Shown piece after piece: positions 19,081-61,950 of a DNA stretch of 64,000 nt. The stretch covers positions 1 to 64,000 of the forward strand of contig QPGO01000205.1 in NCBI GenBank assembly GCA_008632985.1. Reading direction: 5' to 3'. The stretch comes from Psammoneis japonica. Its lineage: Eukaryota. Positions within the stretch are counted from its first letter, which is position 1; each line of letters starts with the position of its first letter. The notes under the pieces are model-generated. The model had not been told where the DNA came from. It ran no database searches and saw only the letters and a list, made by a program, of their open reading frames with translations. The translations under genes and the position numbers were made by a program.

Positions 19081-19112
19081 GTCAGAGCTCGTAGTCTAGC
19101 TCGTTCGTTGAT

Positions 19113-31500: not shown

Positions 31501-32008
31501 TCAGCGTTGCAGACCGTGGACTTGGGTCTCAACCAGCTCGTTGGCAGCATCCCACCATCAATCGGAAACTACGCGGAACTCGAAACTTTAGTAGTTTCAC
31601 AAAATCTCCTCACTGGAAGCCTTCCTTCGCAACTTGCCCAATTATCAAAGCTGAAGAATTTGTTTTTAGCCTTTAACTCGTTGACCGGACCCGTCCCTGA
31701 TAGCTTGGCTCTCCTCCCGCAGCTTGGTAAGCATCGTTTACGCTGCTCTCAAGTATTTCCTTCCCAACTGCAGTAGCGTACTATCTTGTCCTCAATCCCA
31801 TTTGCACCTCCTTTCTCAACTACAAACAGACGTTCTCTGGGTAAACGGGAACCGCCTTTCTGGAGATTTGGATGCGTTCTGTGCACGCGAAGAGCCCCTC
31901 GATTCGCTGATGGCAGATTGCCTGGCTCCGGAAGAAATACGTTGCAGTTGCTGCCATGTTTGCTGCAATGATACATCCTGTTGCGATAGTGGCGGCTCTT
32001 GCATATAG
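28537..32008 (+). CDS. LRR receptor-like transmembrane protein, copy 1; join(28537..29821,29930..31726,31830..32008)
   Basis: Disordered N-terminus, TM helix (LMVALVGLILIIVGVVLVVTV), QQRY..W..GFLS..CEW cap, many plant-type LRRs (LxxNxLxGxIPxEI) and a Cys-rich tail CSCCHVCC; two GT-AG introns. Confidence 0.9.
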
Positions 32009-32749
32009 TCTAGGCATCTTAGGACATTTATCAGAATACCAGTACATACCAACTTCCCTCTAACCTCTATAACATTTACATAATTCGTGTTCAAACGACG
32101 GCACTACACCCTATGCCATTTTCATTGGATTCCCTCATTTTTCTTTCCGCACGACGCATGCAGGGAGCTGCAGGAAAAAACGGCTTGTGGCACTGCGGCG
32201 CGGATGACAAGCTACCGAATCGAAAAATTTGCGACATCGCAAAATTTGCGACAAATTCCGAATCCCCGCACAATCATCGCGCGGCGAGTCGAGAAACGAC
32301 CCTTGTCACCCTCCAAGATCGTCTTTGCGACGCGGCCAACATCCTCTGGTGCAATTCAAGGTGCAGGCGTTCTTTCTACTTCGATTAAGAAAAGATATGA
32401 TGCACGAGAAATGACAAGAAATCCTTATTTTCAAAGGAAATTGCCTTCTCGTGACAGCAACTCATGCCGACGCATCGCAAGATTTCAACAAAAAATGACC
32501 TTTTTGGATGATTACACCGCCTTTCCTCACAAACAAAACGTCATATAGCTCTTCATAATGATAATAATCTGATTGGTTTGTTATTTCATGTCACTTACAG
32601 ACCTTCGGTTGTCGAAACAGCATCATTTGCTCATTTGAAGCGAAAAATGAAGCACTCAGAGACCTCGCACGTGCTTTCATCGTGAAAAAATTCGAGCTAT
32701 TTGTTTTTATAAATTAATTTGCGATTCGCAAATTTTGCGTTTCAGTAGC

Positions 32750-34740: not shown

Positions 34741-35091
34741 CTCAGTGCAAATGCGATGAATGGTATGCCATCGGTTGCACCATGAAAAAGCCTGTTCATA
34801 AGTCAACCAATGTCGAACATATGCCATCTAAGCATCTGGCAACTGGCAAGTCGAAAGTGATTTCTGGTTAAATCAGTATGCGAACCCACCGTGCAAGGAA
34901 TGCCGCGATGCTGAGTCCGGAAAACTCGTGAACGAAAACGCGAACGCCCAAAGAGGCAATGTCGATCGCGTTCTTTCTTCCCCAATCTATCACGAACACT
35001 GGAAAAGAAATAAATCGCAACTCCTCTAGAGAGACAATGTCTTCATCCTTGCCCATTGATTGAAATTCTAAGCAAGAACAACTCTGAATCC

Positions 35092-38000
35092 ATGTCTGCG
35101 CCTCAAGACAACGTGTATAACGAAAACGTGCCTCAGCAGCATGAAAAGACCGGTCAGAGGCATACGGTGCCTCACCGGCACATGGAGGACCTTGAACCGC
35201 TAGAGCCAACACCCATGCCCACGATTCATGGCCGTAGGACAGGTGCACCACCTCAGCGACAGGAAGGCTTTCCGCAAGAGTTGTTGGAAATGAAACGCTC
35301 CCCACACCAAGAAGATGATCTTGTATCCGAAAAGAGGAAAGGAGCCAATCGACGTGGTAAGAAGAAACCTAAGAAACGGCGACAGCAAAGCTTTCCTCAA
35401 GAGGTTCCGGAAACGAAATGCTCACCTCGTCAAGAGGATGATCACGTCTCTAAAACGATGAACAAGACGAATGGAGCAAACCGCAACTGGGAAAGGAAGC
35501 GTGTTTCTAGAGAGGTTCCAGTCTATTCGTCTTCACAACAGGCTGGAGATCGTTCTCGCGCTTACTACGAGAGAAAGGAAAGGAAGAAATATCAAGAGTC
35601 TGATGTACCAGGGTCTTCCGGTCCAGGCGCAATGCCACCACCGTCTCAAAACGAAGCCGCTACAGGCAACTACGACGAGCAACACATGTCTCCAGGAGCC
35701 TTTCATGAAGGATTCGCATCTTCCGAAAATGATGCGGAGGAGGGAATCGCTGCCAATCAAGACATGACGAGCCCAGCACTACTGCCTGAACAACTCCAAC
35801 TCCAGTCTCATGAACATGAAGAAGAAGATCTCGTCGTGGCAGCCAAGGTGGTTCGGAGCGATAGCGACGTATTAGAAGAAGCTCGAGATCGCGTCATGAA
35901 GGAAGCCCAGGTAGCGGATATTCTTCCACCGGACAAGTTCTTTTCCTTCCGAAACAAAAAGCTAATGGTTGCTCTTGTCGGAATTATCCTGATCATTGTC
36001 GGGGTTGTTTTGGTTGTTACGGTTGGCCTACGCAAGAATGGAGGAGATCCTATGCTTTCTGTTCCTCGAGAGTTTGTTACCGTGTTGGCCCCGATATCGG
36101 GAAATGATCCGTTCGAGGACCCTTTGACTCCCCAGTACCAAGTTGCCATGTGGCTTGCATGGAATGACACTGCAGCTCTTGATCCTGGCACTGATTCTGA
36201 TGCCGAGATACAGCAGCGTTATATTATTGCATTGCTGTACTATGTTACCAAAGGAGAGAGCTGGAACAATCAGTACGGCTTCTTGTCAGAATCTAATGTC
36301 TGTGAGTGGAACGACGCTAATTCTGGCTTCGGCGTTCACTGCGAAAACCAAGAAGCGGTCACAAAGATCAGTCTTGGTAAGAAGTCAATGCATTTGTGGT
36401 GCTGTGCTTTGTTGTTATCACCGTGTCTAACACAGTACCTTATTCCGTCTCGGCCCATTGCTTCTCCGTCAATTCGTTGAAAACAGCATCGAACAATTTA
36501 GTAGGGTCGCTTCCCGACGAGATCACACATTTACCAGAGCTACAGCTTATTGCTATGTTTAATAATTCTCTTGGTGGAACGATCATGCCCTCCATTGGCG
36601 ATTTGTCTCGGTTGATTCATTTTGACCTTGAAATGAACGAGTTAAGTGGGACCATGCCAGAATCGATTTACTCCTTGTCGAATCTCGAGCTCTTATGGTT
36701 GCAACAAAACAAGATATGGGGGCCAATCTCAAGCCATATTGGAGCCATGAAGAATCTCAAACACTTCAGCTGTTCAGAGTGCCAGTTGTGTGGAGAAATT
36801 CCTTCTGAATTATTCGGCTTGGAAAGTCTGGAAGTGTTGTTACTTGCAGACAACACATTGGGCGGAATTCTCTTCCCTCTTGACCGAGCGCCCAACCTTC
36901 GCATTGTGGATTTTCACCTCAATGGACTCAGAGGTTCTCTTGAGGATTTCATTCTATCAGCTCCAGCTAGTTTGGTTCATCTCGATTTGTCCTTTAACAG
37001 ATTCAGAGGACACATCCCCGCCTTTGCATCAAAATTGGACCGTTTGGAGACATTCGCAGTTGAGTCAAACGAGTTGTCCGGCAAGGTTGTGGAATTCTTT
37101 GCCACGGCGCCCCGTTCTCTGACGACACTATTAATGTATGAGAACGCTTTCGATGGCAGTCTGCCCAGTTCCATTGGAAAAATCGCTTCTTTGAGGAATC
37201 TTGCTCTCCATTCGAATGACTTCACTGGTGGCATACCAAGTGAAGTTGGCAGATTGAGTCATCTCGAGGTTATATATTTGAATGATAACAATCTTGGATC
37301 GACCATCCCGACCGAACTCGCGGCTTTGTCGAATCTAACGGCCATCAATCTAGTTGCCAGCAACCTCTGGGGCACCATTCCACCAGCCATTGGAGATCTA
37401 CCTTTGCTTGAGCATTTGTTGATCGATGGAAATAACTTGAATGGCACACTCCCTGACTTCTCTGGCAACCAGGGCCGCTTACTTTCGATTTTTGCAGGCG
37501 GGAATAAGCTTTCGGGCCGTTTAGAGAAGTTTTTCGAGTCTGTTCCGCACTCTCTTCAGACCTTAAGTTTGGGCGGCAACAAGCTCTCGGGATCCCTTCC
37601 GCGATATCTTGGCGATCTGTCTGACATAACGGGTTTGTGGTTGTATGAGAACCATATTACCGGCAGCCTTCCAACAGAGGTCGGACGTTTGACTAACCTA
37701 TTGTCATTTGCAATCTACGACAACCATGTTACAGGAACGTTACCGACCGAATTAGGACTGATAAGTGCTCTGGAAGAATTCATCGCTCATACAAATTCAA
37801 TTACTGGAAACGTGCCTTCGGAAATTGGTAATTGTAGCAGGCTTCTGTCGCTTGATTTATCAGAAAATCGCCTGGTTGGAAGCATACCCCAGACCGTAGC
37901 AGAGCTCCCAATGACATATGCAATCAGTTTGGGAAACAACCTGATGACCGGGACCCTTCCTGATTTTGCCGCAAATCAAAACGCACTGAGTGCTTTTAGA

Positions 38001-38565
38001 GCTGAGAACAACAGCATTTCAGGCAATGTGGAGCAGTTCTTCGCGTCAACTCCCTCGTCAGCGTTGCAGACCGTGGACTTGGGTCTCAACCAGCTCGTTG
38101 GGAGCATACCACCATCAATCGGAAACTACGCGGAACTCGAAACTTTAGTAGTTTCCCAAAATCTCCTCACTGGAGGCCTTCCTTCGCAACTTGGTCAGCT
38201 ATCAAACCTGCAGAAATTGCTTTTAGACTTTAACTCCTTGACAGGACCCGTCCCTGATAGCTTGGCTCTCCTGCCGCAGCTTGGTAAGCATCATTTACGC
38301 TGCTCTCAAGTGTTTCCTTTCCAACTGTAGTAGCGCACTATCTTGTCCTCAATCCCATTTGCACTTCCTTTCTCAACTACGAACAGACGTTCTCTGGGTG
38401 AACGGGAACCGGCTTTCTGGAGATTTGAATGCGTTCTGTGTACGCGATGAGCTCCTCGATTCGCTGATGGCAGATTGCCTGGCTCCGGAAGAAATACGTT
38501 GCAGTTGCTGCCATTTTTGCTGCAATGATACATCCTGTTGCGATAGTGGCGGCTCTTGCATATAG
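35092..38565 (+). CDS. LRR receptor-like transmembrane protein, copy 2; join(35092..36376,36487..38283,38387..38565)
   Basis: Collinear paralog of copy 1 with the same intron positions and an intact frame after splicing. Confidence 0.9.
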
Positions 38566-38780
38566 ACATCTTAAGACATTTATCAGAATACCGGTACTTA
38601 CCAACTTCGCTCTAACCTCTATAATCTTTACATGATTCGTGTTCAAACGACGGCACTACACCCTATGCCATTTATTGGATTCCCTCATTTTTCTTTCCGC
38701 ACGATGAACCAAGTCGGAGCAGTCGTAACTTCTTCTAAAGTATTGTACAAAAAGACTGTCCTTTCCCATGCCCATGCATT

Positions 38781-40039: not shown

Positions 40040-42092
40040 GCGCGCCCACAAGAGACATGATGCACAGTTTTTTGGTCATCGCCTGGCAATTCCAACACCA
40101 TAGACCATGGACACTCCAATCATTTAATCAAACCTCGTGCAGCCACATTTCTTGTGCTGCAGGAACCTGTGGCGCTGAACAGTTGTCAAATGTAAAGTTT
40201 TCTCTGCCCCAGGCATGAATTCCTCAGATGAGGGTGGCAAACAAAACGACACGAGGGCTCTGGCGCTGCCGTCGAGGCGCTCGAGAGCAGGCTGACAAGG
40301 GCACACCCAAACCCCTGCAGCAGCAATCAAAAGGCTAAGGCTTGAGATGCCACAGCAGTCAACACTGTCAAATTTGCACCTGAGTTGTGGTGCATCTCTG
40401 TGTGCACCCTCTCGCGAGCTGGCTCTTCTTCTCTTTTTCTGCTCCCCCTCTTCTTTTGATGATCCTCGCCGATTTTTTGTGCCATCACAAAGTCAAAGGA
40501 AGGCTGCTTTTTCTCAGGAAGTGTTGGTTCAATGTCCACAAAGGGCAGCCAAATCCCTTGGAATGCACACAAGAGGAGTTGCAGCAGCAGCAGCAGCAGC
40601 TCTGTGAGTTTTTGTTTTGCTGCTGCTGTGAGAAAGCTCGCGCCTGCTGCTCTCCCCCCCTCCCACCAGCATCACAACTGGCAAACACCCAACAAATGTT
40701 CCTGTTTGCCTCAAAAAATGGCTTTCACTTCCTCAAGTTCTCATGCATGTGAAAAGAGCAGCTGTGTGTGCAGTGCCATGCACCACCCCCAAAAAATGTC
40801 TGACACCACACTGACACCTGCCTTGCTCCTCGTCACAATCACCATGAGTGACAGCTGCCAGAACATTGTGGACAGAAAGGTTGCATGCAGAGATGGACAA
40901 TGTGGTTGAGACAGTGCAGCACAGGACAGCAGCATTTGCTTTGTGTCACAGCCTGAAACAATGACGATGGGATGAGAGTGCTTGCCTGCAAGTTGCTCAG
41001 AGAGGTGAAGAGGAGTGTCAAAATCAGTCTCCAGTGAAGCACCATCTTCACCCCCTGCTCTCTTGACACATGAAAGCACGGAATCAAGAAGGGGGCTCAG
41101 GCACAACCAAACTCACTTGCAGCTGCCATGAACAGGATCTTGCGACGCTCTTGAGAGCAAAGCTCTTTTAAGATTTTTCGATGTTTGAGGTCTCCACATG
41201 AGTGCAGGTGGCCCTGTGGTGGCTGATGAAAAGCACTCAGATTTCCTTCTTGGGGATCTGGCAGCAAAATTTCCTTGAGCTGCCAAAGTCATTTTGCATC
41301 ATGCAGATGATCTTGAGCAGGAAAGACGAGCTTCATCATGGTGTCTGGCTGCATTGCTTCCCACAAAAATGATGGACATGCCCATTGAGCAAAGGACAGC
41401 AGGAGCTTGTCTTGCAACTGTGTGGCAGGGGAGCACTCAAGTCATTGTCATCAAACAAACAGTCAAGCTTGACAGCACTGGTGGCAAGCTGGGGGAGGTG
41501 TCAGCACCCTCTGAAAACAACGAGATCTTTTTCATGAGGTTTGATGCCCCCTCCATGACAAAGTGCAAAGAGGGTCTTTGTGAGCAAAACCTGGCAGCAA
41601 CTGCTGCACCTGTGCAAACTTGGCGATGAGATTGAGCACAGGGAACCACAACAGCAAGTGGGGCTTTGGCAGCAGTGTGCCCTCCTCTTGCAGAAACAGC
41701 AAACAGTGCTGTGGCTCACAACTTGTGCTGACCCCAGGATCTGCGCCAACAGCAGCTGCACTGCCCTTGGAGCCCTTCTTGTTGGGGCCACTGCTCTTGG
41801 CATTGTTTGCCTTCTGCCTGTCTGCCAGCTCTCTTTTGTTCTTTTTGGGTTGAAGAGCTTTGGGGGGGCAGGTTCTTTCCCAGCACCTGCGCAGCAGCAG
41901 CTCTGTGTGTGGCACTTGGACCACCAGCACCATGGCTCCTCTCTCGATGAAGTTGTCAGTGACAATGAACCTTCCTCACGACACAAGGCCCTGCGGATGC
42001 ATGAGTCACACTCTTCGTTGTTGTTGCAGACACATGATGATCTGCACATGACGTTGTGCGAATGTTCTTGGTGGCGTTTCATCTCGTCATCC
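40040..42092 (-). repeat. Degenerate copy of an unidentified multi-copy repeat (homologous to 51770-54480)
   Basis: Shared blocks cagttgtcaaatgYaaagtt, gcatgaattcctcaga, aaggcttgagatgYcacagcag and gagcact..gtcattgtcat; TA-depleted. Confidence 0.75.
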
Positions 42093-42284
42093 CGAGTGAA
42101 TTTGGATGGAGAAGTGAGAGAGGACAATGTTGCGATTGGTGACTGGTTGACATGTGTGAATCAAGTGGTGTTCTAACAACACTCTCACAATCTAATCAGG
42201 TTTGGGTTCGCATCAACAGTGTTGCGACTTTCCATCAGACGCAAGGTGTCGTGCTTGTTCTTTCATCACATTGAGATTCATTTG
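42093..42284 (+). repeat. 5' LTR
   Basis: Gap-free alignment with 48753-48944, 15 substitutions. Confidence 0.93.
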
Positions 42285-45200
42285 CTTCATCAGAGCCATG
42301 ACGAAAAAGACAGAACGAAATGGTTTCAAATGCAATCCGTCATGGACGATTGTTTGTTGTGTTGTTTGCATGGAACGTGCAGCTGTAGAAACGGTGCTGG
42401 ACTGCACGCGATGCATCAGAATTCGGACAGATGTGCACGAAGATGTGTCTCGTGTCACTTGTTGTGACATCCACAAAAACAGCTTGCAATGACAATGCTC
42501 GCAAAGACAGTCACTGTCCTCACACATGTGATGGGTGTGAGGGGACTGCGGTGTTGGGTGACATGCCCGAGCGTGTGCTCAACAATGTCAGTTGACATGA
42601 ACGACACAGGACTGATCACCCTGACGTCGGGTGGCCATGTGAACCCGTCATCACAACACAGAGAAAGTGTGGCCTCCATGACCATGCAGACTCACAGCCA
42701 TGTGTTCCCGGTGTGGGACCTTTGCACCCTTTCTTTATTGTGGGATGGCAGCAGCGGCAGCACCAGCAGCAGCACTTGCGGCATCAGCTGCGGCAGCTGA
42801 CGTTGACGCAGTTTTACAAGTTTGTGGTGTTGCTGACCAGAACGCAAGGGCGAGGTTGGTTTTCTGTGAAGGGTTCACGACTTTGGAAAACATCGCAGTG
42901 ATGGAGAGTGACCATGATGTGGAAGATGTGGCGCAAAGGGCATCTCATCGCATGGCGGCTGACGGACGTGTGACTCTCGGGACTGTCCAAATCAAGAACT
43001 TACAGGCATTGGTGTGGTGGTGCCAGGATTTGCTCAAACGGAATCAGGCATTGGTTGCGGCAAACTTTAATGTGGCAGCTGTGGCTGCAGCCCGAGATGG
43101 CAGACGTTGAAAAGGAGCGCACGGACTCGGACGCGTTGGTGAGCGGTCTTGTAAAGTTTGAGTCTGATGACTTTGATGTGTGCAAAGACGCTTTCTTGAA
43201 TCTCCTGGCACAGAAGTTTGGCATGTTGAAGGAGCCCCTTCGTCATGTTGCAAGGACGATGCCAGCTCCGGCTGCATTCACAGATGCTCAACAGCGGCGC
43301 ATGCGCCAGATGCCACTGAATGGTGCCGCATTTGATGAGGACAACCGCAACGTTTGTCGCATGTTGAAGGAATGCTTGGTCGCTGCAGCAGGTGGGCATG
43401 GATCGAACCGTGACACGACAGAAAATGGACGTGGAGCATTCAACGCATGGGTCGACCATTGCAACGGACAGGGCGAGTTGAGCAAGTGCATTCATCTGGC
43501 TATGGCCACTGTTGACACCTTGTTTTACAAGAAGGAAGGATCGCTCCCGTTTGAAAAGTTCAATGAGAAACTCACCAGTGCCTTTGCCACTTTGAACAAA
43601 TCACCGGATGACCGCAAATCTGAATGACAGAAAGTTGACATTCTTCTAAAAGGGATCAAAACAGATGACCCTCGTCTCATTGCAGCAACAGCTGTCATTG
43701 GCAGTCAGCACCCTCGTGACTTCGCGGGGGCATGTGCTCATTTCTCATCCGAAGTCTCTTGTTTGCATGCAGGTGCTCAGTTGGAAGCCCGGCGTCCTCG
43801 AAGCGCAAGATTTCTGAAATGAGCCGTGGTGGCGGTGGTGGCCGTGGCTTCTGTCGAGGTCATGGTCGCGGAGGAAGATTTGGACGTTGGGGTGGACGTG
43901 GACGTGGTGGTGGTCGCCAAGGTGGGGGTGGCAACTACACCACAATGATCAATGGAGTTGATGCATCCGATCCCACAAGAGCTCAGTCCTCAAGAATGGG
44001 AAAAGTTGCAGTTTGATGGAGGGATCAGCTGTGTTTTCCAAGCCCGCGAACGAATGGGACATGGACACGGTGGAGGCCGTGGGCCTCCCGCAGGTCGACA
44101 AGGACGTGATGGGGGCGGCAGGCATGCAGCCGAAACCCAAGTTTGTCAAGATGGCCAAGGCCAAACCCAACAACAGGATCAGGAGCAAAGAGCAGTGGGC
44201 GTGGTTGCGGCACTGACCATGATCGCGGTGGACGAAATGGATGCGCCTTTGGTCGGGGAGCCTGTGATGGTTCCACCTGACTTCTTGGGGTGGCAACAGC
44301 TGCTGGAGCATTGGCGCATTTGGCACACTTGTCGTTTTTGCTTGTGTTGCTCTTCTTGCTGTTGACCAAACCCCACCCAACATCTCGTTTCAAAGAAAAG
44401 GCGACAAAGAGGCGCATTGCTGTGACATCAAAACGTGTGATCCGATCAACGAGTTCCGCACAGATGACAAATTTGACGACACCCGGGTTCATTGCTCGAA
44501 ATGAATGTGATGCTCACGCGGACACTTGTTGCGCTGGAGCGAACTGGAAGCTATGGAGATGACAAATGAAGTGTGCAAAGTGCATCCATTTTTGGACTCT
44601 TGTGAGCCGATCAAACAGATTCCTGTGGCACGTTGTTGCACGGCATGGACAGATCCAGAAACGACTCGTGAATGTTTGCTGGTTGGTGACCAAATGCTCT
44701 GGTTTGGAACCAACATGGAACATTCGCTTTTGAACCCTAACCAACTTCGTGCAACAACACACCCGTACACGACAACCCTTGCGACACTCGAAACGGATTT
44801 GGCATTGAAGCTGATGAAGCTTTCATCCCTTTCAACACCACGGGGACAATTGTGTCTTTCAAGTCTCGTGTTCCGAACGGATTGGGAAGTGCAGAACTTG
44901 CCGGTTGTGCCATTGACAGGTGACGCATGGGATCCAGCACAGACAGATGTGGGCTTGCCGGAGCGCACTAGAGAGCAGGCGGAGATGCGTGCTGTTCGAT
45001 CATTGACCTCTGGCATGTGACAAGAACAGGTCTCGGAATTAAGGAGCGAGAAGGCGAAGTCCCAAGCAGCACGCTGGGGCGAGGTCGAAATGCAACTGTC
45101 ATCCATGTCCCCTGTCTGTCAACTTCAATCGTTTTGTGACCGGCTTGTCAGCTCAGTCAATGTGGCTTGCACGTGTCGTGACGATGTGGATGAAAAGCAG

Positions 45201-46420
45201 AGGGCAATCAAAGAGCTGCACAGCAAGGATCGGCACTCGAAAGTTGATGCTGAAGAGTTGGCTCGAAAATGGAGTGTCAGTTTAGAAACGGCAAAAGACA
45301 CCCTAAATGTGACCACTCAGTGCGGTGCACGAACGGCGACCCAGCCGATGTCACGAAGAGTGAGGGTGGATCACCTCGACTTGCATCAGAAGCGTCTGAA
45401 AGGAACATGGTTTGTGGACACTCTGATGTCAAAGGTGAAGTCCTTGCTTGGCAACACGTGTGCCAATGTTCATGCTCAGGGCAAATTCGTGAAGGTTGTG
45501 CCGATGACCGCAAGGTCGGAGGCAGGTTTGTCTCTCGTTGAATTCACAGACAACGAGGGTGCACCAGAATGTCTCATGTCGGATGGGGCAGGAGAGTTCA
45601 CTGGAAAGAGCACCGAGTTTGCAAGGCACGCACGACGCACGAGAATGCAGTTAAGAACATCGGAGCAGGGTCGGAAGAACCAGAATCAGGCGGCGGAACG
45701 CGAAATTGGTTTCTTGGCCAAGCATGGCGGCTGCAAATGACAAAGAAGAAGGTGCCAAGACGATCTGGGATTTGGTCTCGTTCATGAGTCGGATAGTGTT
45801 GCGCATGGCAAGAGGCAGAGACAGAGGACCGGACATGAAGAGGTCACCGGACAGACACCAGAAAGGCGAGCATTTGGACTTTGGTTTCTGGACATGTGTG
45901 GTGGTGGGACAGGCCCAACAAGCCGAGCCCTCGAAGGCTTGGACGGTGGCTTGGTGTCTCACACAAAGTTGGCTCCGATGTGTGCTGTTGGGTTGTCAAT
46001 GAAAGCGGCAAGATTGTCTCCAAAACATCTGTCGAGCACGTGACACAGGCTGACATGGTGCAACCAGACATTCGCGTTGAGATTGACAACTTTAATGAGC
46101 AGCTGGAAAAGCGATTGGATGACACTGACTTTGTCTCACAGGGCGATGAAGCAGCACCTGCATTCGTGTTGGACGATTTTGCAATTGACGGCAACCCTGG
46201 TGTTGAACATGAGGGCGGCGTCATGCCTGAGGACGAGGAACATGGCGACATGCTGCTGCCCGACGAACGACTGGACGATGATGACGAGCAGGCAATTGAT
46301 CAATGCCTGGGAATGGAACTCATGTTTGACATTGGAACCGACGGTGAATGACGCGGTGTTGTAACGAAACGTGCAAGAGGACAGGATGGGCATCCAATTG
46401 GGACTGGGCATCAAAACCCA

Positions 46421-48560
46421 TTGTTTGACACTGGCGAATGCGAAGTGGAACATGCCGACGGCACCACAGATGAGCACACAGCCAATGTAATTGCCAAGAA
46501 CATGTTCGCTCAGGTCGACAGCAAAGGCAACCAGCACTCCATCTTACACGAAATGCAGGACCACGAGAGGAGTGACGATGCAGTGTTGGTTGCTGACGGC
46601 ACCGTACGAACCACTGACGGGAAGGAGTTGAAGAAAATCACGACAAAAGGATGGAAACTGTTGGTCGGATGGAAGGATGGCAGCTCATCTTGGGTCAAAC
46701 TCAAAGATCTGAAGGACTCTAACCCAATTGAAGTTGCTGAGCATGCTGTTGTGAACAGGTTGACTGAGGAACCTGCCTTTGCTTGGTGGGTCACGCATGT
46801 CCTGCGCAAACGGAATCACATCATGTCCAAGGTTAAGAAGAAGTGCTGGCGCACGACTCACAAGTTTGGCACCCGATTGCCCAAGTCAACGGAGGACGCT
46901 TTGCAGACAGACCAGGAAATGGGGACAGACCGTTGGGCTCGTGCAATCAACAAGGAGATGACAAAAGCAAAGGTGGCATGGCGCGAGCATGAGGCTGAAA
47001 CCCCTCAAGTTGTCCAGGAAGGCAAGAGCACAACTTTGTGTGGTTGTCAGGAGATCAGGTGCCACATGGCATTTGACGTTAAAATGGATTTCACCAGAAA
47101 GGCAAGGTTTGTAGCTGGCGGCCACATGACAGAGGCTCCAGCATCAATCACTTGTTCTGGCATGGTTTCTAGAGACAGTGTGCGACTTGGATTCTTGCTG
47201 GCAGCTTTGAATGGAATCAACATTGCAGCGATTGATCTGGAGAATGCTCATCTCAACGCACCGTGCGCAGAGAAGATGTGGTTCGAAGGCGGAAAGGAAT
47301 GCGGCGAGCATGAAGGGAAGGTGCTTGTTGTCACTCGGGCATCACATGGCTTGAAGAGCTCGGGACACTCTTGGAGGTCCGCACTGTCATCGGTCCTACG
47401 TGACTCAGGCTTTGAATCGACGAGAGCGGATCCAGACGTTCACTTGCGTGTGGCGACTCGTGAAGATGGGCACGAGCATTGTGAAATGCTTTTGGTCTGT
47501 GTTGATGACACACTGATCATTTCCCATCAAGGGAAGTCCATTGTCACTGCAACGGGTGAACACTGTGCCATGAAGCCCGGCAGCAAAGGAGAGCCAGAGG
47601 TTCATCTTGGAGCTAACGTCGAGAAGGTTCAGACTCAAGATGGGTGCACAATCTGGGCGAGTTCACCGAGGTCACATGTCAAATCGGCAATTAAGACTGT
47701 GGAAGGTCTGTTGGATGAAGATGGCAATGGAGAGGTTCTGAAGAACAGCGCAAAGGATCCACTGCCCCCGAAGCACAAACCGGAGCTGGACGTGACAGAC
47801 GAGTTAGGCCCCGACTTGGTGGACAGGCACTTGCAGCTGACAGGGATTTGTCACTGGGCGATCGAGTTGGGTCCTGTCGACATCTTGCATGAGGTTTCAA
47901 TCCTGTCTCAATGTCAAGCTAATCCGAGGAAAGGACACCTTGAAGCATTGTGTCATGTGTTTGCGCATGTGAAGAAACACCAGAACGTTGGACGCATTGG
48001 ATTCGATCCGAAGGAACCGGTGGTTGATGAGTCTGTTTTCAATTCGAACGCGGACTGGACCGAGTTTTACGGGGACGTTGAGGAGGAACTGCCACCACGG
48101 GCACCAAAGCCTTGTGGCAACCCAGCAAACATCCATGCATTTGTTGACGCTAACCATGCAGGGAACGTCGTTGCTCGCAGGTCGCACAGTGGAGTTCTGA
48201 TGTTTGTCAATGACGCGCCAGTGACATGGTTCAGCAAGCGGCAGAACACGGTGGAATCGGCAACGTTTGGAAGTGAATTGGTTGCGATGCAGATTTGCAA
48301 GGAGTTGATTGTTGCTTTGCGTTGCAAGCTTCGTATGTTTGGAGTTCCTCTTGAAGGACCGGCAAGCATCTTTTGTGACAACCGCAGTGTTGTGAAGAAT
48401 GTGAGTGTGCCTGAGTCGGTTTTGCACAAGAAGCACAATGCCATCAACTGCCATGTTGTGTGAGAAGTGGTCGCAGCGGGAATCATTCATGTTGGCAAGG
48501 AGGACACGGAAACAAACTTGGCAGATCTGCTTGCGAAAATGGTTGCAGGAGAGCGACGAT
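46421..48560 (+). pseudogene. Copia pol RT-RNase H region, inactivated
   Basis: 680-aa ORF with RT and RNase H motifs and essentially no Tyr; stop at 48461 (probable CGA->TGA). Confidence 0.92.
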
Positions 48561-48752
48561 GGAAGCTTTGCTCCTGTGTCTTTTGGCAATGTCCCGACAC
48601 CAAGGCCAGACACCTGTGGCTTGCGCCCACGTGCCTCGGCCTCCCAAGCCAGCATGTCTGGTGGTTTAATTTGGGTTTTGTGGTTTACCTCTCTGTGAGA
48701 GGACGTTGCATGTTTGGATGAATCGGCACCGTCATTGCCGTTTCGCGGGGAC

Positions 48753-48944
48753 CGAGTGAATTTGGATGGAGAAGCAAGAGAGGACAATGTTGCGATGGGT
48801 GACTGGTTGACATATATGAATCGAGTGGTGTTCTAACAACACTCTCACAATCTAATCAGGTTTAGGTTCGCATTAACAGTGTTACGACTTTCCATTAGAC
48901 GTAAGGTGTCGTGCTTGTTCTTTCGTTACATTGAGATTTATTCG
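48753..48944 (+). repeat. 3' LTR
   Basis: Follows the PPT and is followed by the TSD atcc (48945-48948); distal part retains TA. Confidence 0.93.
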
Positions 48945-49086
48945 ATCCAATCAGTCACGAATGGAGAGCAAGCGCGAACTCGTAAACTCGAGTCGTGCGG
49001 ACGGATGAGGAGTCGTCGTTCATCGTCGTTGGTCGCGTTCACATAATGTTGGTTGACTGCTGTGAAGCACTGCACGGCAAATCAAC

Positions 49087-50469
49087 ATGGCCCAAGAAAC
49101 AGCAGCGTTTGAAAGCTTCATCGTTGAAGCACCACCAGTGGTGTATTGGAATTGCAATGTCTATTCCTTGGATTTTTCACCGGATGGTCAACTCCTTGCG
49201 ATTGGCTGCGGTGGCTGGTACGGGGAGGGTGGGATTGCACTCGTCGATTTGGCAACACGCGCACGAGCCAGTTGCCTCCGTTTTGTTACGGAAGCCTTTC
49301 AAAGAGACTACGGTTTCGAGGCTGGAGAAACAAGAATTCTACCTGGTGAGACGAATGGAGTACCATCCGACATTCCCGGCAGTTTGACAATCTCCGGTGT
49401 TATGTTTGATGCATCCGGAGAGTACATTGCAGCGTCTTCTTGGCGCTCTCGCCACAACGAAGGCCCAGCTTTTCTCTTTCGCGTGAGACCAGACAACTCA
49501 ATGCCGCTTGCTCTTGAGGTCTCGCAAGCGTTTCCTGTTGACCTTGAAAGTCGTCGTCGATTCATAAGTCGAACAACCAATGGCATTTTTATTTCGAATC
49601 ATGGTTTGATTGCAAGGGCCCTTGTCCACGACGCAAATGATTCGCGCAGTGTATTCAAGGTACATTCTCTGCAGACGACATTGACCGCACCGGCTCATAG
49701 CTATCAGTCTCACTCAAGATTTGCCGTGGTCGACAATGAATTCGTTACTGGTTTCATGGACGGTCTGGTTTCGCTGGACTGCCAAACTGGAGTGCATTCG
49801 TGCTATGGCGTACGAACTGGAAACGATGATTCTTCGAGAAGCGCGGTATCGGCAATAACGACGCTCCCTGGAAGAGAGGCAGAAATCTTGACGGGTCATG
49901 ATGATGGAACGATTCAAATATGGAAGCGGACACCATACATGACTTGGATCCGTCTACAAGAAGTTTATTCTCCAACAAGACGAGACGATGGTCATAATAT
50001 TGTGGCTCTATGTGCGCTCGATGACGGACGATTTTTCTCGGCTACTGCCTCTGGAGAGATTTTGGAATGGCAATACCATCAAAATTCATGTAGCGACACA
50101 GCCTTGTCGGCGAGGATCTTGAAACCTCGTTCACTATCACGTGACGGAACCGTCCGATCTCTTGCTGTGCATCCTTCCACACCATCCCAGAACGGAAGAC
50201 GCGTGGGCCTTCTGGCCGTAGGTGTCAAGTCAACGGATAGAAGCAGGCGCGGCTTTGTTGAATGCTTTGAAATTGAAATGGGATGGCACATCTTTGGTCA
50301 TTTTATCTTGCTGCGGGAACTTGTCAGACAAGGTCGAGCAATTGCAGCAAAAACAGATGGCACACATGACGGTAGAACGATGGAGGCATTAGCAACAAGG
50401 GTCCTTTGCCACCTCATGTCACCCGATTTTGACGACGATCTCTTTCGTAAGATACTCTCATTCTTGTGA
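49087..50469 (+). CDS. WD40/beta-propeller-like protein
   Basis: 460-aa ORF with VYSLDFSPDGQLLAIG, ILTGHDDGTIQIW and FFSATASGEILEW; normal composition. Confidence 0.75.
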   Translation: MAQETAAFESFIVEAPPVVYWNCNVYSLDFSPDGQLLAIGCGGWYGEGGIALVDLATRARASCLRFVTEAFQRDYGFEAGETRILPGETNGVPSDIPGSLTISGVMFDASGEYIAASSWRSRHNEGPAFLFRVRPDNSMPLALEVSQAFPVDLESRRRFISRTTNGIFISNHGLIARALVHDANDSRSVFKVHSLQTTLTAPAHSYQSHSRFAVVDNEFVTGFMDGLVSLDCQTGVHSCYGVRTGNDDSSRSAVSAITTLPGREAEILTGHDDGTIQIWKRTPYMTWIRLQEVYSPTRRDDGHNIVALCALDDGRFFSATASGEILEWQYHQNSCSDTALSARILKPRSLSRDGTVRSLAVHPSTPSQNGRRVGLLAVGVKSTDRSRRGFVECFEIEMGWHIFGHFILLRELVRQGRAIAAKTDGTHDGRTMEALATRVLCHLMSPDFDDDLFRKILSFL

Positions 50470-50599: not shown

Positions 50600-53500
50600 A
50601 CCTGAACGATCACAGCAGTTCTGTGCCGCAGTTGGCACGCCCGCTGTGCAGCAGCAGGCTGTCCTCCTCCTTTGCGTTTGTGCCCTCCGTCCAATCTTCT
50701 GGTTGCGCTGAAGAACTTTGGGACAGCAGTTGCCAGGAGAGCAAAGCTGGGTTCGCTGTGCTGTGCCAAAGCAGGGGGGGGGGGCACACTTGCAAGGTGG
50801 GGGGCAAGCTTCCTCCAGAGAGTTTCTTCTTCTGTTGTTGTTGTTCCAAGTGCCTCCATGGTGATTTTCTCCTGGTGGGTGGTGGGTCTCAATGGTCTCG
50901 TTTCGTGGCTCTCATTGTTTGTTATTTTGGGCCACACAACAATCTCTGATCAAAGTTGGGGGCTTTTGCCCCAGTGGCTCAATGGCCTGCCTTGGCTCTT
51001 TGTGGTGGCTTGCACTTTTCTGCACCAGATGGTGCTGAGTTCACCTGCATGCTTTCAAATCCAGGCTTGATGCAGAATCTCCCAACCCACCATGGCACCT
51101 TTTTCCATCAATGACATTGATCTGTTCCCACCACAGTGTCACCATGGCTGACAATGTGCGCTTGAAAAAATGAAAGTGCCAAGAACAGAGTGGGCTTTTC
51201 TGGGCTTGAAGCAGTCAGGAAGTGCAAACAGGAAGTTGTTGGCAGCAACACGCCATGTGCGTTGGCACAAAAATCACACATGCAGAAAATTCATAAAGAA
51301 AAATGTTGAAATGCAGGGTTCAAGCCAATTTTTTTCTTTCCCGTGCTCCTCCTCTTGGTGACAAAGCCTCAAGGAATTTTCTCTAAAAAAAAATTGGCAC
51401 TTTGCATTGTTGCTTTTATGTGAGCAACATGATTTGGCACATCTCATGTCCAAAGGTCTGTTTTCAAAGTTTCGTTGACACTTCCGCAGTGATGCCACAG
51501 CATGATGAAAAATTTTCAAACATGGAGTTAAGGTGTGCGCAAAGGACATTGTTGTGTTTGTCATCAAAAAGCAAGCTCACAAAGTGTCAACTGCTGTGAC
51601 CCAAATTGACTCCTTGAGGTCATGGCTCATCATTTGCAAAGCATGTGAAAAGCACAATGAATTGATTTTCTGCACATGAGTTTGCACCAGAAATTGGCCC
51701 AAACCAAAAATTTCAAGCTTGTGTCCCCTGCACATGGCTTGTGGGTGTGGGAGAAAAATGGTTGAACAATTCAGTTGTCAAATGCAAAGTTCCCCCCAAG
51801 CATGAATTCCTCAGAGATGCAGATCAGGTGTTGAACAAAAAGACAGGGCTGGTGTCATCACACATCACACACCTCTGAGCAATCCAGTGTGGGTGGGCAC
51901 AAAGTTGCCAGCTTCTTGCTGCTCACAAAAAATGCTGCTCTTTTGCTGCCACAGTGCAGTGCACCTGAAACCACATGACCAGCAGCAACCATGAGGCCAA
52001 GGCTTGAGATGTCACAGCAGCCACAAACACACAGCCGCTCAGTCTGTGCCTTTTGCTGCTTCATGATGCAAGTGGAGATAAACAAGTTGTCTTTGCTGCA
52101 CACTTTCATCCCCTTGCCTTTCTTTTTTTCTCCTCATGACAAGCCACTTTTGTGCTGCTGCCACAAAGCTAAAAGATTTTTTTCTTGGAGAAGAGTTGGC
52201 TGGCTGGGTGTCTTGTGTGGAGCAGTTTTTGAGAAAACAGGAGAAGCACCAGCAGCTCCAAATCCCTGAGCTGGAAAGTGCACAATGAGGGAGAGTTGTG
52301 GAACAAGCCAAGTCTTTTTGCTGTCTGCCAAGAAAGCTCCCCCACACCCCAGCACAACTTTTGCAAAAACCCTGCTGGCACTCCCCCTGCATCAAGAATG
52401 GCTGCAGCACATCTAAAAATGGCTGCAGGCTTGCCGAGGGAGTGCAGAAGTCCATTTCCCATGGAACAGAGCACACTGAGCCCATGTGGACTGACGGATC
52501 TTCTTGTTCATCCGATGGACACACAGTTGTCAGCCATGGGGCTGCATCACCTTTTTTGCTTGCTCTGATGTTGGCTGGGACACACGTCACCAAAAAGACA
52601 GCAGGCCACTCAAGTGGCTCCACTCATTTTGAAGGCAATGCTGAGTTCTCCAAACCAAGTGCCGCTGTCTTGGCCACAATTTATTGTGCAGGATGCAGTG
52701 CAAACTCCATGTGCATGTCTCTGTTTTTCTGGAAGGCTTGCTCAATGATCTTGAGGTCATAAATTTTGAGCATTTTTGTTGCCACTTTTCTGCTGATTGT
52801 CACAAGTGCATTGTGCACCAACCTTTGACATGCTTGCATGATCAACCAGCTCTTGCATCACTCCTCCATTGATGCAAAGCCACCAACATCAACAGTGTCA
52901 CAGCACAGGCAGGATTTGAGGCTGCAGCATCAGCAAAACAATGCTGGCCTCCTTTGGGCACCACACACTGAGAGTCATTTTGATGTGATGCACCCAGCTT
53001 CTTTTTGCATGTGTGTGGCTGTGTGCGACAGCCAAGTGGTGTGTGGCTGTGCACTGACACTGCTGACATGCTGGAGTTTGACACTTGTTTCAGACTGGCT
53101 TTGAGAGTTTTGATGTTCCACTCAGCTTCTTTTTGCATTTGTGGCTCTGTGCCACAGCCAATTGGTGTGCAGCCATGCACTGATGCTGCTGACATGCTGG
53201 AGTTTGGCAATTGTTTCAGACCAACTTTGATGTGGGCAAAAGCAGCAGCAGCCAGCACTGAGGGAAGACACTTGCGTGCAAGTTGCTCAAGGTGAGGAGA
53301 TCCATCAAAATCAGTCCCCGGCAAAGATGCCACCTTGTTTGCCTTCTTGCTTGCTCTCCCACAACACATGGAAGCACAGCAAACCAAGAGACCTCCTGAG
53401 CAGGTGGCCAAACTTGCAACCACTCCATGAAAAGCAACTGGCACTGCTTGGCAAAGCTCTCAAGAATTTTTCAATGCTCGAGGATGTGCAAGTGGCCCCA

Positions 53501-54480
53501 TGATGGCTGCAAAAAAGGCAGCACACAGGACCACTCATTGAACCCAGCAAAAAAAGTTTCCTTTGACTGCCAAGCTTCTTTTGCCCACAGATGATCTTGA
53601 GATGGAAGGAGGAGCTGCACTGCAGATTGTTTTGCCTTGTGCAAATGATGCACATCATGCCCCTGCTGAACAAACCAGGAGCCTGTCTTGAGCTGTGAGG
53701 AGAGCACTTGGGTCATTGTCATTGCACAAATGGTTGAGTTTGGCAGCACCAGCAAACTGGGGGAAGTGTTGGCACCCCAAACAATGAGAGCTTGTCAAAA
53801 CCAAAACTGCCTCATGAGAGGATTGACAACACCCACCAACAAGAGTGTGCTCTCTGGAGATGAGGTGCAAAGTGGTTCTTCTCAAGCAAAGCCTGGTGGT
53901 GACTTTTGCACCTGTGCAAATTTGGAAATGTGCACGTGCAGGAAAAAACAACAAGCAGGACTTTGGAGCATCAGCCACCCTTGCAGAGAGAATGCACAGC
54001 AAACAGTGCCAAAGCTCACCTCTGGCACTTGCCAGGATCTGTGCCCACAATGGCTGCAGCACTGTCCTTGGAGCACTTGTTGGGGCAGCTGTCCTCAGCA
54101 TTGTGTGCCTCTGCACCACACTTGGTGTGCCCGCTGCCCTCTGTCCAACCCTCTTGTTGTGCTGAAGAGCTGTGGGACAACAGCTGCTGGGAGCACAAGT
54201 TGTGTTCACTGGGCTGTGCCAAAGTGTGGGGTGCCTCCGTGCCCATGCTTCAGTGGATCCCAATGATGCTGTTTTATGTCCCTCAGTGTCTTGCCTCTTT
54301 TTTTTTTTGCCACACAGCAACATCTGATCAAAAGCAGGGGCTTTTGCCGCAGCGGCTCAAAATGGCCGGCACCTTTGTTCTTGAGCTTTGGCAGCTTTTG
54401 TGTCTGGTTCCTGATGAGGTCTCCTCTTTCCTGTTGCACCAAGCGCGGAACCCGAAGCTCTTGCTGAAGCGGTCGGGAAG
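50600..54480 (-). repeat. TpA/CpG-depleted island F containing two copies of the unidentified repeat (50600-51070 resembles 54100-54480)
   Basis: Example: gctgaagaactttgggacagcag...ctgtgccaaag versus gctgaagagctgtgggacaacag...ctgtgccaaag. Confidence 0.78.
52969..53230. repeat. Approximately 130-bp tandem duplication
   Basis: cagcttctttttgcat...ctgctgacatgctggagtttg...tgtttcagac occurs twice. Confidence 0.85.
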
Positions 54481-61800: not shown

Positions 61801-61950
61801 CCTTTTTTGGCTTGAGAATGGCAACACGCTGCTCATCCATCACCTTGTTTTCATTCCATCGCTTCTGCTTCTCTTTCGGCATGGTTGCGACTTGCTCAAC
61901 GCGAAGATGAAATGTGCTTCTACATGCATGACATTGTGGCATGTAACACA
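55870..61950. repeat. TpA/CpG-depleted degenerate repeat island G
   Basis: Composition; fragmented coding-like remnants not assignable by eye. Boundaries approximate. Confidence 0.75.

Follow-up and report, generated by a model that had tools for sequence, protein, structure and literature searches.

The two long terminal repeats (LTRs) of a retrotransposon in a diatom chromosome differ at most of their TA dinucleotides, which raises the question of when, in which direction and on which strands these sites were changed. The pair amounts to a natural experiment, as the LTRs were identical at insertion and lie 6.6 kb apart with one in the affected domain and the other outside. In the window, which is the whole 64-kb stretch of DNA that was analysed, this is the single intact pair of such LTRs. 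The direct-repeat search returned one pair (42092-42289 and 48752-48949, offset 6660), and the LTR limits given in Table 1 are these repeats with the target-site copies trimmed. With an LTR pair, a target-site duplication and an RVT_2 domain in pol, the element is a Ty1/copia (CoDi-like) LTR retrotransposon.

Table 1. The element, its component parts and its immediate surroundings, by position in the window (o/e, observed over expected)
Feature	Position	Strand	Remarks
TA-poor, TG/CA-rich domain	40201..48750		Contains upstream repeat, 5' LTR and entire element interior
Upstream flank: older repeat, outside element, more depleted still	40201..42088		TA o/e 0.02, CG o/e 0.25
Target-site duplication ATCC, left copy	42089..42092	+	Same 4 bases after 3' LTR
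5' LTR, hypermutated, 192 bp	42093..42284	+	15 differences from 3' LTR
Primer-binding-site-like stretch, immediately 3' of 5' LTR	42285..42300	+	By eye from sequence
Upstream coding remnant, resembles N-terminal part of related polyproteins (possibly gag)	42799..43786	+	tblastn
pol region, Ty1/copia (CoDi-like), split over three frames	43933..48592	+	333 tblastn HSPs, 120 relatives
Reverse transcriptase domain	47081..47542	+	Pfam RVT_2, E=2.2e-12, residues 244-397 of P0001
Purine-rich stretch preceding 3' LTR, polypurine-tract-like	48740..48752	+	By eye from sequence
3' LTR, spared, 192 bp	48753..48944	+	TA o/e 0.67, CG o/e 1.18
Target-site duplication ATCC, right copy	48945..48948	+	Flanks 3' LTR
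Host WD40-repeat gene, normal composition	49066..50466	+	Pfam WD40; Tyr content of translation normal

The stretch following the 5' LTR is one that we take to resemble the usual copia tRNA-iMet primer site. The upstream coding remnant is covered by tblastn HSPs from the 120 relatives (two at 42799-43044 and four at 43097-43786), and a Pfam search of this remnant returned no family. The pol region is colinear with residues 1-1418 of P0002 in frames 1, 0 and 2. Relatives of the element are 1300-1470 aa long and colinear, the best being 65% identical, and those that are named come from the diatom Fragilaria crotonensis. The catalytic YVDD motif of the reverse transcriptase reads CVDD in the element (47498-47509). 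No Pfam match to an integrase was obtained on the degraded frames of the element, and the domain order is taken solely from colinearity with the full-length relatives. The element also carries frameshifts and ordinary substitutions. The first ATG of the WD40 gene is located about 143 bp downstream of the 3' LTR, in a flank with a TA o/e of 0.48 and a CG o/e of 1.14.

The initial annotation had listed 15 differences between the LTRs over 192 bp at an offset of 6660, and this count is exact, with 14 transitions and one transversion (seven C/T, seven A/G and one G/T in an ungapped alignment). As it had also stated, nine of the 11 TA sites of the 3' LTR are altered in the 5' LTR (five to CA, four to TG), as are three of its nine CG sites (two to CA, one to TG); one site at 42115-6 reads TG in the 5' LTR and CA in the 3' LTR, accounting for two of the 15 differences, and the transversion is at 42137. 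In the reverse direction, the two TA sites and six CG sites present in the 5' LTR are all intact in the 3' LTR. The palindromic dinucleotide is found in the 3' LTR at 12 of the 12 TA- or CG-linked differences (two-sided binomial P=0.0005). Chance is excluded as the source of the concentration at TA, where at least nine of 15 differences would hit the 22 TA positions among the 192 with a probability of 2e-6 (hypergeometric). The 3' LTR escaped wholly, at CG as well as TA sites, and this one-sidedness of the damage had gone unremarked. The 5' LTR contains two TA against 14.9 expected (o/e 0.13) and has a CG o/e of 0.69, and the 3' LTR contains 11 against 16.4 expected (o/e 0.67) with a CG o/e of 1.18.

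The LTRs differ at 82% of TA sites, compared to a single difference among the roughly 150 positions that belong to neither TA nor CG. About 82% of the TA sites of the 5' LTR and about 85-97% of those of the interior have been converted, with very little change at sites other than TA and CG, and arithmetic on the site counts places TA loss within the element at roughly 4-11 times quicker per site than CG loss. A control pair of LRR genes (28145-32154 and 34742-38704), 4 kb in length, 88% identical and located in DNA of normal composition, exhibits 175 transitions and 143 transversions, with 19-23% of TA sites changed versus 14-20% of other dinucleotides. The spectrum of this gene duplicate is ordinary and its TA content normal, and duplication is therefore not the trigger.

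The direction of change had been left open by the initial annotation and is now settled, with TA as the ancestral state, by the Tyr codons, the polarised codon changes and the TA content of the relatives. The codon comparison covers 623 codons conserved across 120 copia relatives. Only one of the 29 conserved Tyr sites is kept; 13 have become His and 12 Cys, with codons CAY or TGY at 25 of the 29. Other conserved residues are mostly retained (Cys 5/5, His 18/19, Trp 21/22), and Ile, whose codons include the TA-containing ATA, is retained at 10 of 25 sites. Unambiguous single-step changes at conserved codons number 77, of which 38 are at TA (20 A>G and 18 T>C), 15 are G>A at CG and three are C>T at CG; each other class holds three or fewer, and A>G outside the TA context was seen only twice. 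Median Tyr retention in the relatives is 0.93 (77 loci with at least eight conserved Tyr columns). The median TA o/e of 78 related elements is 0.72, alongside 0.67 in the 3' LTR, 0.13 in the 5' LTR and 0.11 in the interior. Contigs of the family agree at position 48173, which is TG in the window and TA in the family majority, and they polarise 14 private changes of CG to CA or TG in this copy of the element. By rough arithmetic, the depth of family contigs on the 3' LTR is about 8-10 times that on the 5' LTR.

The changes arose after integration, as had been proposed: the LTRs of one insertion differ, a target-site duplication is present and an empty-site allele exists. The TA-poor state moreover extends into the non-element flank (40201-42088) and halts just short of the 3' LTR. 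The proposal that both strands were affected is likewise borne out by the TG:CA ratios, 4:5 for the LTR and 12:13 for the Tyr codons. The interior is equally enriched in TG (o/e 1.57) and CA (o/e 1.56), with o/e values of 0.11 for TA and 0.78 for CG. Editing of an RNA genome would give identical LTRs and single-strand changes, and therefore does not fit; the argument of the initial annotation against ADAR-type editing of the RNA intermediate holds on both points, and its interpretation is supported.

The element forms part of a mosaic. HMM segmentation on TA counts divides the window into normal DNA and seven sharply edged TA-poor blocks, which make up 30.9 of the 64 kb, with a TA o/e of 0.01-0.09 and an excess of TG and CA. 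Across the affected DNA, o/e lies at 0.01-0.13 for TA and at 1.45-1.85 for TG/CA; in the blocks CG o/e is 0.14-0.66, and AT o/e shows no depletion. The limits of TA loss and CG loss are exactly identical, and the surviving TAs are biased toward YTAR contexts. The domain holding the element (TA o/e 0.09, CG 0.66, TG 1.59, CA 1.60) ends about 100 bp or less before the 3' LTR, the last internal TAs being at 48334, 48667 and 48686, and its edges are visible in a 250-bp profile. Its upstream repeat has 81-84% similarity at the purine/pyrimidine level to 53264-54112, which belongs to another TA-poor block. An unrelated ORF in the TA-poor block 1001-8300 keeps none of three Tyr, with three changes of Val to Ala and two of Ile to Thr. 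Every Pfam-recognised host gene is located in a block of normal composition. No recognisable transposon domain was found in the remaining six TA-poor blocks, and with a single block assigned to a transposable element, targeting can be stated for this element and not for such elements in general.

The basis of the analysis is one assembled sequence and one contig-level public run (X1). A contig of X1 joins the flanks over a single ATCC (joint 42086 to 48945, depth 28.5), which shows that there is also an allele lacking the insertion. The private letter of the window is read at 14 of 35 listed places at X1 depths of 26-66, including CA at 47545-6 and TG at 48173. At the other 21 the letter of the window is in no X1 contig, and X1 contains 0.32 of the sampled 31-mers of the element, which is thus not fully re-found in independent data. 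In a metagenome locus (L069), Tyr is kept at two of 13 conserved sites, with His at six and Cys at five. Locus L044 has an open frame of 1423 aa, a TA o/e of 0.14 and Phe in place of Tyr at six conserved sites.

These data bear on the very unlikely reading that the cell still has unaltered TA and CG sites, whose modified bases were misread as TG or CA by a long-read base-caller. Near-total conversion, sharp block edges and a young-looking insertion would fit a modification map, and the low representation of the element in X1 also favours this reading, yet X1 contigs give the private letters of the window at depths that bracket that of the empty site, and contigs of up to 315 kb at such depths would imply accurate reads. 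The change of Tyr to His or Cys recurs in the independent metagenome contig, the element bears frameshifts and ordinary substitutions as well, and the comparable process in Bigelowiella natans was, according to its preprint, measured with Illumina data. [quoted passage not shown] Polarity is unobtainable from two LTRs alone, and position 48875 is TG in 18 of 18 family contigs and TA in the 3' LTR; at 42214-5 and 42279-80 the family contigs have TG rather than TA. At these last two sites, however, the 5' LTR is two steps from the family TG and the 3' LTR one, so that parsimony points to ancestral TA. Such a direction is also contradicted by the conversion to His or Cys of Tyr codons in the interior, a region that runs on directly from the 5' LTR, by mutated regions that are depleted of TA rather than enriched, by a 3' LTR that matches the relatives in TA and keeps more CG than the 5' LTR, and by the unaffected duplicated genes.

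Editing before integration, by an ADAR/ADAT-type enzyme on the RNA genome or by an APOBEC-like deaminase on single-stranded cDNA, is highly improbable. Editing of retroelement cDNA is well known in vertebrates, and RNA adenosine deaminases are described as favouring a U before the edited A (bioRxiv 10.64898/2026.01.13.699255). Changes in RNA would nevertheless be copied to both LTRs, which differ at nine of 11 TA sites; the outcomes are strand-symmetric, the same signature is borne by the non-element flank and six other blocks, and CG decay is likewise absent from the 3' LTR. To our knowledge, ADAR is furthermore restricted to animals. Unlikely, too, is the same chromosomal hypermutation without adenine deamination, in which TpA within silenced chromatin carries a modified base, for example N6-methyladenine or a thymine derivative such as 5-hydroxymethyluracil, that mispairs at replication or is mis-repaired, so that A:T becomes G:C. 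TpA is palindromic like CpG and could bear a symmetric heritable mark, the shared limits of TA and CG loss suit a chromatin or methylation domain, and a YTAR bias among surviving TAs is what a sequence-specific modifier would leave. The literature search, however, gave no documented TpA mark in diatoms, AT is undepleted in the blocks, and the eukaryotic 6mA sites known to us are ApT and not TpA.

The best explanation as a whole, which we regard as probable, is a copia insertion followed by locally confined TpA hypermutation of chromosomal DNA. On this account the element inserted beside a repeat that had decayed earlier, with the WD40 gene about 140 bp downstream. The chromosomal DNA then underwent confined hypermutation of TpA to TpG or CpA (A:T to G:C) on both strands equally, and CpG in the same domain decayed to TpG or CpA at a slower pace, with deamination of 5-methylcytosine as the simplest cause. 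The sequence data themselves show which changes occurred and in which direction, that they are strand-symmetric and confined to domains, and that they postdate integration. The process appears to track a chromatin-like domain rather than the limits of the element, with the upstream repeat included and the gene-proximal 3' LTR left out. The 3' LTR may have been spared because the neighbouring gene has its active promoter region there; alternatively, later gene conversion from an unmutated copy could account for its state. The process is presumably enzymatic, most plausibly involving a candidate TadA/ADAT2-like deaminase that would convert adenine to hypoxanthine in the 5'-TA context, and it may serve as a genome defence. 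By analogy, it would be the same process as the TpA hypermutation of the B. natans mutation-accumulation lines.

A broader reading is offered tentatively, as it falls somewhat short of being probable. Diatoms would possess an active, chromatin-domain-directed defence that edits DNA adenines and erases TpA in still-polymorphic insertions faster than methylated CpG decays. Its limits would be set by chromatin state and not by sequence homology, given that the process would halt where the promoter of the adjacent gene begins to act. The defence would be shared with chlorarachniophytes, being either ancient in the SAR supergroup or spread among marine algae, and some elements may evolve TA-free coding, of which locus L044 is a possible example.

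So far the sole documented TpA-specific hypermutation of integrated DNA is that of the 2026 preprint in one chlorarachniophyte, and no report of TpA-to-TpG/CpA hypermutation in diatoms was found in the literature search. The signature in a diatom suggests that the process is not peculiar to a single lineage, and it moves the question to a group for which genetic tools and numerous genome sequences exist and in which a comparative screen becomes possible for a responsible gene that is present with the signature and absent without it. From the LTR pair one can read the spectrum and direction of change, the relative rates (TA >> CG >> other sites) and where the domain edge lies. There are also consequences for annotation: TA-poor regions are nearly devoid of TAA and TAG stops and show long spurious open frames in both orientations, and proteins translated from them are low in Tyr and rich in His and Cys.

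Among known systems, the decay of methylated CpG in silenced transposable elements matches the change of CG to TG or CA in the same blocks and accounts for the CG losses only. RIP in fungi resembles the diatom case in its very dense, dinucleotide-specific transitions on both chromosomal strands, which destroy transposable elements and leave adjoining genes intact. RIP, however, deaminates C (CpA to TpA) and so raises TA and lowers CA and TG, the opposite of the diatom element, and it is triggered by duplication, whereas the 4-kb gene duplicate is unaffected. The DNMT4 enzymes of diatoms, described as related to fungal RID (PMC9998398), are a lead only. APOBEC3 likewise inactivates LTR elements by deaminase-type hypermutation, but it acts on cytosine before integration and on minus-strand cDNA only (plus-strand G-to-A), while the changes here are at adenine/thymine, symmetric and post-integration. 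ADAR hyper-editing and ADAT2/3-TadA share the conversion of A to I (read as G) and, in the accounts available to us, the preference for U/T before the edited A; their known natural substrates are RNA, whereas the diatom changes are fixed in the DNA, affect both strands and are not shared by the two LTRs.

The closest likeness is with B. natans, in which almost exclusively A:T to G:C transitions on TpA, giving TpG or CpA by strand, occur in chromosomal DNA within confined regions of foreign origin. The preprint (Mettrop et al., bioRxiv 10.64898/2026.01.13.699255, dated 2026-04-14) reports 231 de novo mutations from two integrated viral regions, of which 230 were A>G or T>C and lay without exception on TpA, at a rate about 1000 times background. 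It further describes 124 clusters in the genome that are depleted of TpA and enriched in CpA and TpG, with RT and DDE domains over-represented, and proposes an ADAT2-like enzyme as the candidate. The corresponding features in the window are TpA-centred A:T>G:C changes accompanied mainly by CpG transitions, both products, and discrete blocks that spare all Pfam-recognised host genes. The B. natans mutations were seen arising in mutation-accumulation lines, whereas the diatom case is read from sequence. The hosts are a diatom (Stramenopiles) and a chlorarachniophyte (Rhizaria), and the targets are an LTR retrotransposon and repeats here versus a giant virus and a virophage there. Conversion is near saturation in the diatom, with a TA o/e of 0.01-0.13 compared to 0.45 for the B. 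natans viral region, and CpG decay accompanies TA loss here, a component that the B. natans study did not see. A block edge inside the element is a feature of the diatom case and not of B. natans.

The element exhibits a Pfam RVT_2 domain within a 703-aa open frame, and the closest relatives of this frame are polyproteins of 1300–1470 aa with at most 65% identity, the named ones belonging to the diatom Fragilaria crotonensis. The element aligns colinearly with these polyproteins along its pol region, which is broken over three frames, and on these grounds the element is assigned by homology to the CoDi type of Ty1/copia. A CDC48 gene fragment in the window shows 76–89% identity to diatom proteins, and all of its named matches are from diatoms. 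A tblastn search of the window with 120 copia relatives gave no copia match beyond this element.

A repeat search of the 41–50 kb region returned one direct-repeat pair only (42092–42289 and 48752–48949, offset 6660) which, with the reading of both ends, agrees exactly with the LTR limits of the initial annotation (see table). The ungapped alignment of 192 bp contains 15 differences, composed of seven C/T, seven A/G and a single transversion (G/T). In the 5' LTR, changes are found at nine of the 11 positions that are TA in the 3' LTR (five to CA and four to TG) and at three of the nine that are CG there (two to CA and one to TG); one site reads TG in the 5' LTR and CA in the 3' LTR. All of the difference counts in that annotation were thereby reproduced. 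The placement of at least nine of 15 differences on 22 TA positions has a hypergeometric probability of 2e-6, and the TA- and CG-linked differences run in one direction in 12 cases of 12 (binomial P=0.0005), so chance is excluded as the source of the TA bias.

Features of the window, with observed/expected (o/e) dinucleotide ratios
Feature	Position	TA o/e	CG o/e	TG/CA o/e	Remarks
5' LTR	42093–42284	0.13			ATCC flank; both ends inspected
Interior	42285–48752	0.11			
3' LTR	48753–48944	0.67			ATCC flank; both ends inspected
pol region	43933–48592				
703-aa open frame	46352–48460				RVT_2
Catalytic motif	47498–47509				YVDD to CVDD
Repeat upstream of 5' LTR	40201–42088	0.02	0.25		Distinct from element
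LRR gene copies	28145–32154; 34742–38704				Tandem
Open frame, minus strand	5659–6585				In block 1001–8300
TA-poor block	1001–8300				
TA-poor block	17101–19300				
TA-poor block	22401–23900				
TA-poor block	32801–34300				
TA-poor block	40201–48800				Holds the element
TA-poor block	50601–54400				
TA-poor block	55901–61900				
TA-poor blocks, range		0.01–0.09	0.14–0.66	1.45–1.85	
Between blocks		~0.5	~1.0		
Host genes in normal DNA					Pfam: PA-domain protein, CDC48, protein kinase, NAPRTase, clathrin light chain, LRR (two), WD40

Since the LTR pair alone gives no ancestral state, polarity was taken from protein conservation, using 623 codons with at least 70% agreement among 120 relatives aligned to the element. 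The element keeps 499 of these codons and only one of 29 Tyr, the others being replaced by His (CAY, 13), Cys (TGY, 12), Gln, Trp and Val (one each); retention is complete for Cys (5/5) and nearly so for His (18/19) and Trp (21/22). Of 25 Ile, 10 remain, with Met, Val and Thr as replacements, a pattern predicted by ATA and T|AT codons, and the catalytic YVDD motif has become CVDD. Among 77 unambiguous single-nucleotide steps there are 20 A>G and 18 T>C at TA, and 15 G>A and three C>T in CG context, with every other class at three or fewer. The Tyr losses and this spectrum indicate that TA was converted to TG and CA in the interior, and the 5' LTR lies within the same TA-poor stretch; they oppose the converse case raised in the initial annotation, in which TG/CA would be ancestral and TA derived. 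For comparison, 78 related metagenome loci have a median TA o/e of 0.72, and the 77 with enough conserved Tyr columns retain a median of 0.93 of their Tyr. Counted over all frames, the interior contains 18 TAA, seven TAG and 164 TGA, and this scarcity of TAA and TAG leads to long spurious frames on both strands (31 frames of at least 100 aa overlap 41.5–49.5 kb), which makes TA-lost DNA a trap for gene callers.

The two LTRs of one insertion differ, so the changes arose after integration, and both strands were affected, as had been claimed: the ratio of TG to CA outcomes is 4:5 in the LTR and 12:13 at Tyr codons. RNA-level editing, which predicts that both LTRs are alike and only one strand is altered, is rejected on these two observations, in line with the argument of the initial annotation against editing of the RNA intermediate. 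APOBEC-type editing of cDNA is likewise one-stranded and precedes integration. RIP would have raised TA and would target duplicated sequence of any kind; the TA content is lowered here, and a 4-kb gene duplicate has been left untouched. The latter is the tandem pair of LRR gene copies (88% identical), which served as a control: it differs by 175 transitions and 143 transversions, has normal TA content and shows no TA excess among its differences. Duplication per se is therefore not a trigger of the hypermutation.

The mean TA o/e of the window (0.31, with TG/CA o/e of 1.4) is the mean of two states, and two-state segmentation identified seven TA-poor blocks totaling 30.9 of the 64 kb. All host genes recognized by Pfam lie in normal DNA, and the sole Pfam family within any block is the RVT_2 of the element; the TA loss is thus confined to domains. 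The block that holds the element starts in a distinct and more decayed repeat, 1.9 kb before the 5' LTR, and on the other side it stops short of the 3' LTR by no more than about 100 bp. No TA or CG has been lost from the 3' LTR, and the WD40 gene, with its first ATG approximately 143 bp past this LTR, is of normal composition. Because the block stops before both, the LTR asymmetry is a domain edge. Later gene conversion is an alternative account of the spared 3' LTR.

The six other blocks did not contain a transposon domain in a Pfam search of 37 open frames, in which nothing rose above noise at E up to 1. They are sharp-edged, CG-poor and TG/CA-rich, and are set between normal host genes. Self-comparison of the window as purine/pyrimidine gave many short chance matches and five pairs long enough to trust. 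Degraded repeats are common to different blocks (40974–41814 with 53264–54112, and 23134–23326 with 58916–59104), and direct repeats at 50673–50778 and 54126–54231 bracket the block at 50601–54400. The latter are 92.5% alike as purine/pyrimidine and approximately 80% by base, and they exhibit five TG-versus-CA double differences, as independent loss of shared TA (or CG) sites predicts. The minus-strand frame in the first block has 103 homologous protein clusters in a full HMMER search (best E=2.8e-34), and DUF5898, a domain of unknown function, was identified in four of the 15 longer matches scanned. Compared with these homologs, the frame keeps none of three conserved Tyr (now Cys, His and Phe) and has changed Val to Ala three times and Ile to Thr twice. 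TA loss like that of the element is therefore seen in non-copia sequence as well.

Contigs of the public sequencing run X1 contain 0.32 of the sampled words of the element, and 1937 of them are placed on it at 80% likeness or more, so the element belongs to a family with many copies; two other runs, X2 and X3, provided 4 and 0 contigs. The X1 contigs differ from the element by 735 transitions and 120 transversions. In one X1 contig (depth 28.5), positions 42086 and 48945 are separated by six letters, with a single ATCC, and this contig is the allele without the insertion; it carries a 4-bp indel in the flank (an extra CTCG), and its depth is about half that of the single-copy flanking contig listed in X1 (55.6). 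The individual places considered are 40 of the 858 that differ, 35 of them inside the element. At 14 of these 35 the private letter of the window is read in X1 at a depth of 26–66, a range within which the empty allele also falls, and at the remaining 21 it occurs in no X1 contig. The mutated element thus seems to be hemizygous or polymorphic, and its assembled letters are backed in part, at those 14 listed places, by accurate-read data.

Sorted by kind, 14 of the same 35 rows are CG in all other copies and CA or TG in the window, which is private CpG decay with its polarity given by the family. Three sites (six rows) are CA in the window and TG elsewhere, two of them being LTR sites; one row (48173) is TG in the window and TA elsewhere, one (48875) is TA in the 3' LTR and TG elsewhere, three are CG in the window and TG elsewhere, and the remaining 10 are changes of other kinds. 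For the two LTR sites at which TG is the family reading, an ancestral TA is suggested by parsimony alone, with one step to CA and one to TG. Contig depth in X1 on the 3' LTR is estimated to be roughly 8–10 times that on the 5' LTR, and the usual LTRs of the family therefore resemble the TA-retaining copy.

By our own arithmetic, the LTR pair gives a rate of -ln(2/11), or about 1.7 per site, for TA and -ln(6/9), or about 0.41 per site, for CG, with one change in approximately 150 other positions. TA would thus have changed at about four times the rate of CG and at a few hundred times that of the background; in the interior, with baselines of 0.72 and 0.93, TA loss would be about 11 times CG loss. 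The 121 TAs that survive in TA-poor blocks favor Y-TA-R, and R-TA-Y is nearly absent: TTAA is over-represented 5.5-fold, CTAA/TTAG 2.5-fold and CTAG 1.8-fold, with ATAC/GTAT at 0.06 and ATAT at 0. Approximate survival is 4% for ATA, 6% for GTA, 13% for CTA and 24% for TTA, and both TAs surviving in the 5' LTR are CTAA. This context bias suggests a sequence preference wider than TA itself.

The process is probably enzymatic: adenine preceded by T (5'-TA), on one strand or the other, would be deaminated to hypoxanthine. A candidate enzyme is TadA/ADAT-like, the natural substrate of which likewise has U before the target A; it may be directed to silenced chromatin that also bears CpG methylation, and an active promoter could shield the gene-proximal 3' LTR. 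Mutagenic modification at the palindromic TpA is a chemical alternative to deamination. The TG and CA outcomes along the element, which would cluster under a processive single-strand enzyme, form 15 runs over 38 sites against 19.9 expected (z of about -1.6, not significant). A test of strand choice by the base before T gave P=0.06, with a trend contrary to that expected, and was dropped, as several site classes reveal one outcome only.

Base-calling error at modified bases could also write TG and CA in place of TA, and conversion near saturation in a seemingly young insertion speaks for it. This reading is argued against by the X1 depths at which the letters of the window are read, by the same signature in an independent metagenome contig, and by direct measurement in another alga, Bigelowiella natans. 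The metagenome contig is a related copia fragment of an environmental assembly (L069:1–1590), with a TA o/e of 0.26 and Tyr kept at two of 13 conserved positions (His at six, Cys at five), and it was found despite a search pattern biased against mutated copies. The signature of the element thus occurs in another organism too. A second related locus (L044:1574–5842, on a contig of 6400 bp) has a TA o/e of 0.14, a CG o/e of 0.27 and an open frame of 1423 aa, and keeps Tyr at 11 of 26 conserved sites, with Phe at six. It may be a TA-avoiding yet functional element, or its frame may be open merely because TAA and TAG are gone.

No report of the TpA to TpG/CpA signature in a diatom was found in the literature. 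Mutation accumulation in P. tricornutum gave an ordinary GC-to-AT bias, and TpA is nowhere mentioned in the accessible text of that study (PMC6604790); a survey of diatom DNA methyltransferases describes a RID-related DNMT4 of unknown function, and RIP-like mutation is absent from its accessible text (PMC9998398). According to a preprint on B. natans (bioRxiv 10.64898/2026.01.13.699255), two integrated viral regions have a mutation rate approximately 1000 times that of the remaining genome in mutation-accumulation lines. A>G and T>C make up 230 of 231 changes there; all of these fall on TpA and give TpG/CpA, and the hypermutation occurs in some lines only. The genome contains 124 clusters depleted of TpA and enriched in CpA and TpG, RT and DDE domains are enriched in the TpA-depleted coding sequences, and the authors' candidate enzyme is an ADAT2-like DNA adenine deaminase. 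The figures of the preprint (211 changes, 6169 TpA sites, 3132 line-generations) would amount to a per-generation rate of about 1e-5 for each TpA, so that 90% conversion would take approximately 2e5 generations, which would be compatible with a still-polymorphic insertion. The window shares the TpA to TpG/CpA signature with B. natans, but its host is a diatom, on a different supergroup branch, and the conversion here is near saturation, with CpG decay alongside and one block edge inside the element. The B. natans preprint appears to be the one close precedent in the literature, and a phenomenon described only in 2026 is now encountered in a new lineage and on a new kind of target.
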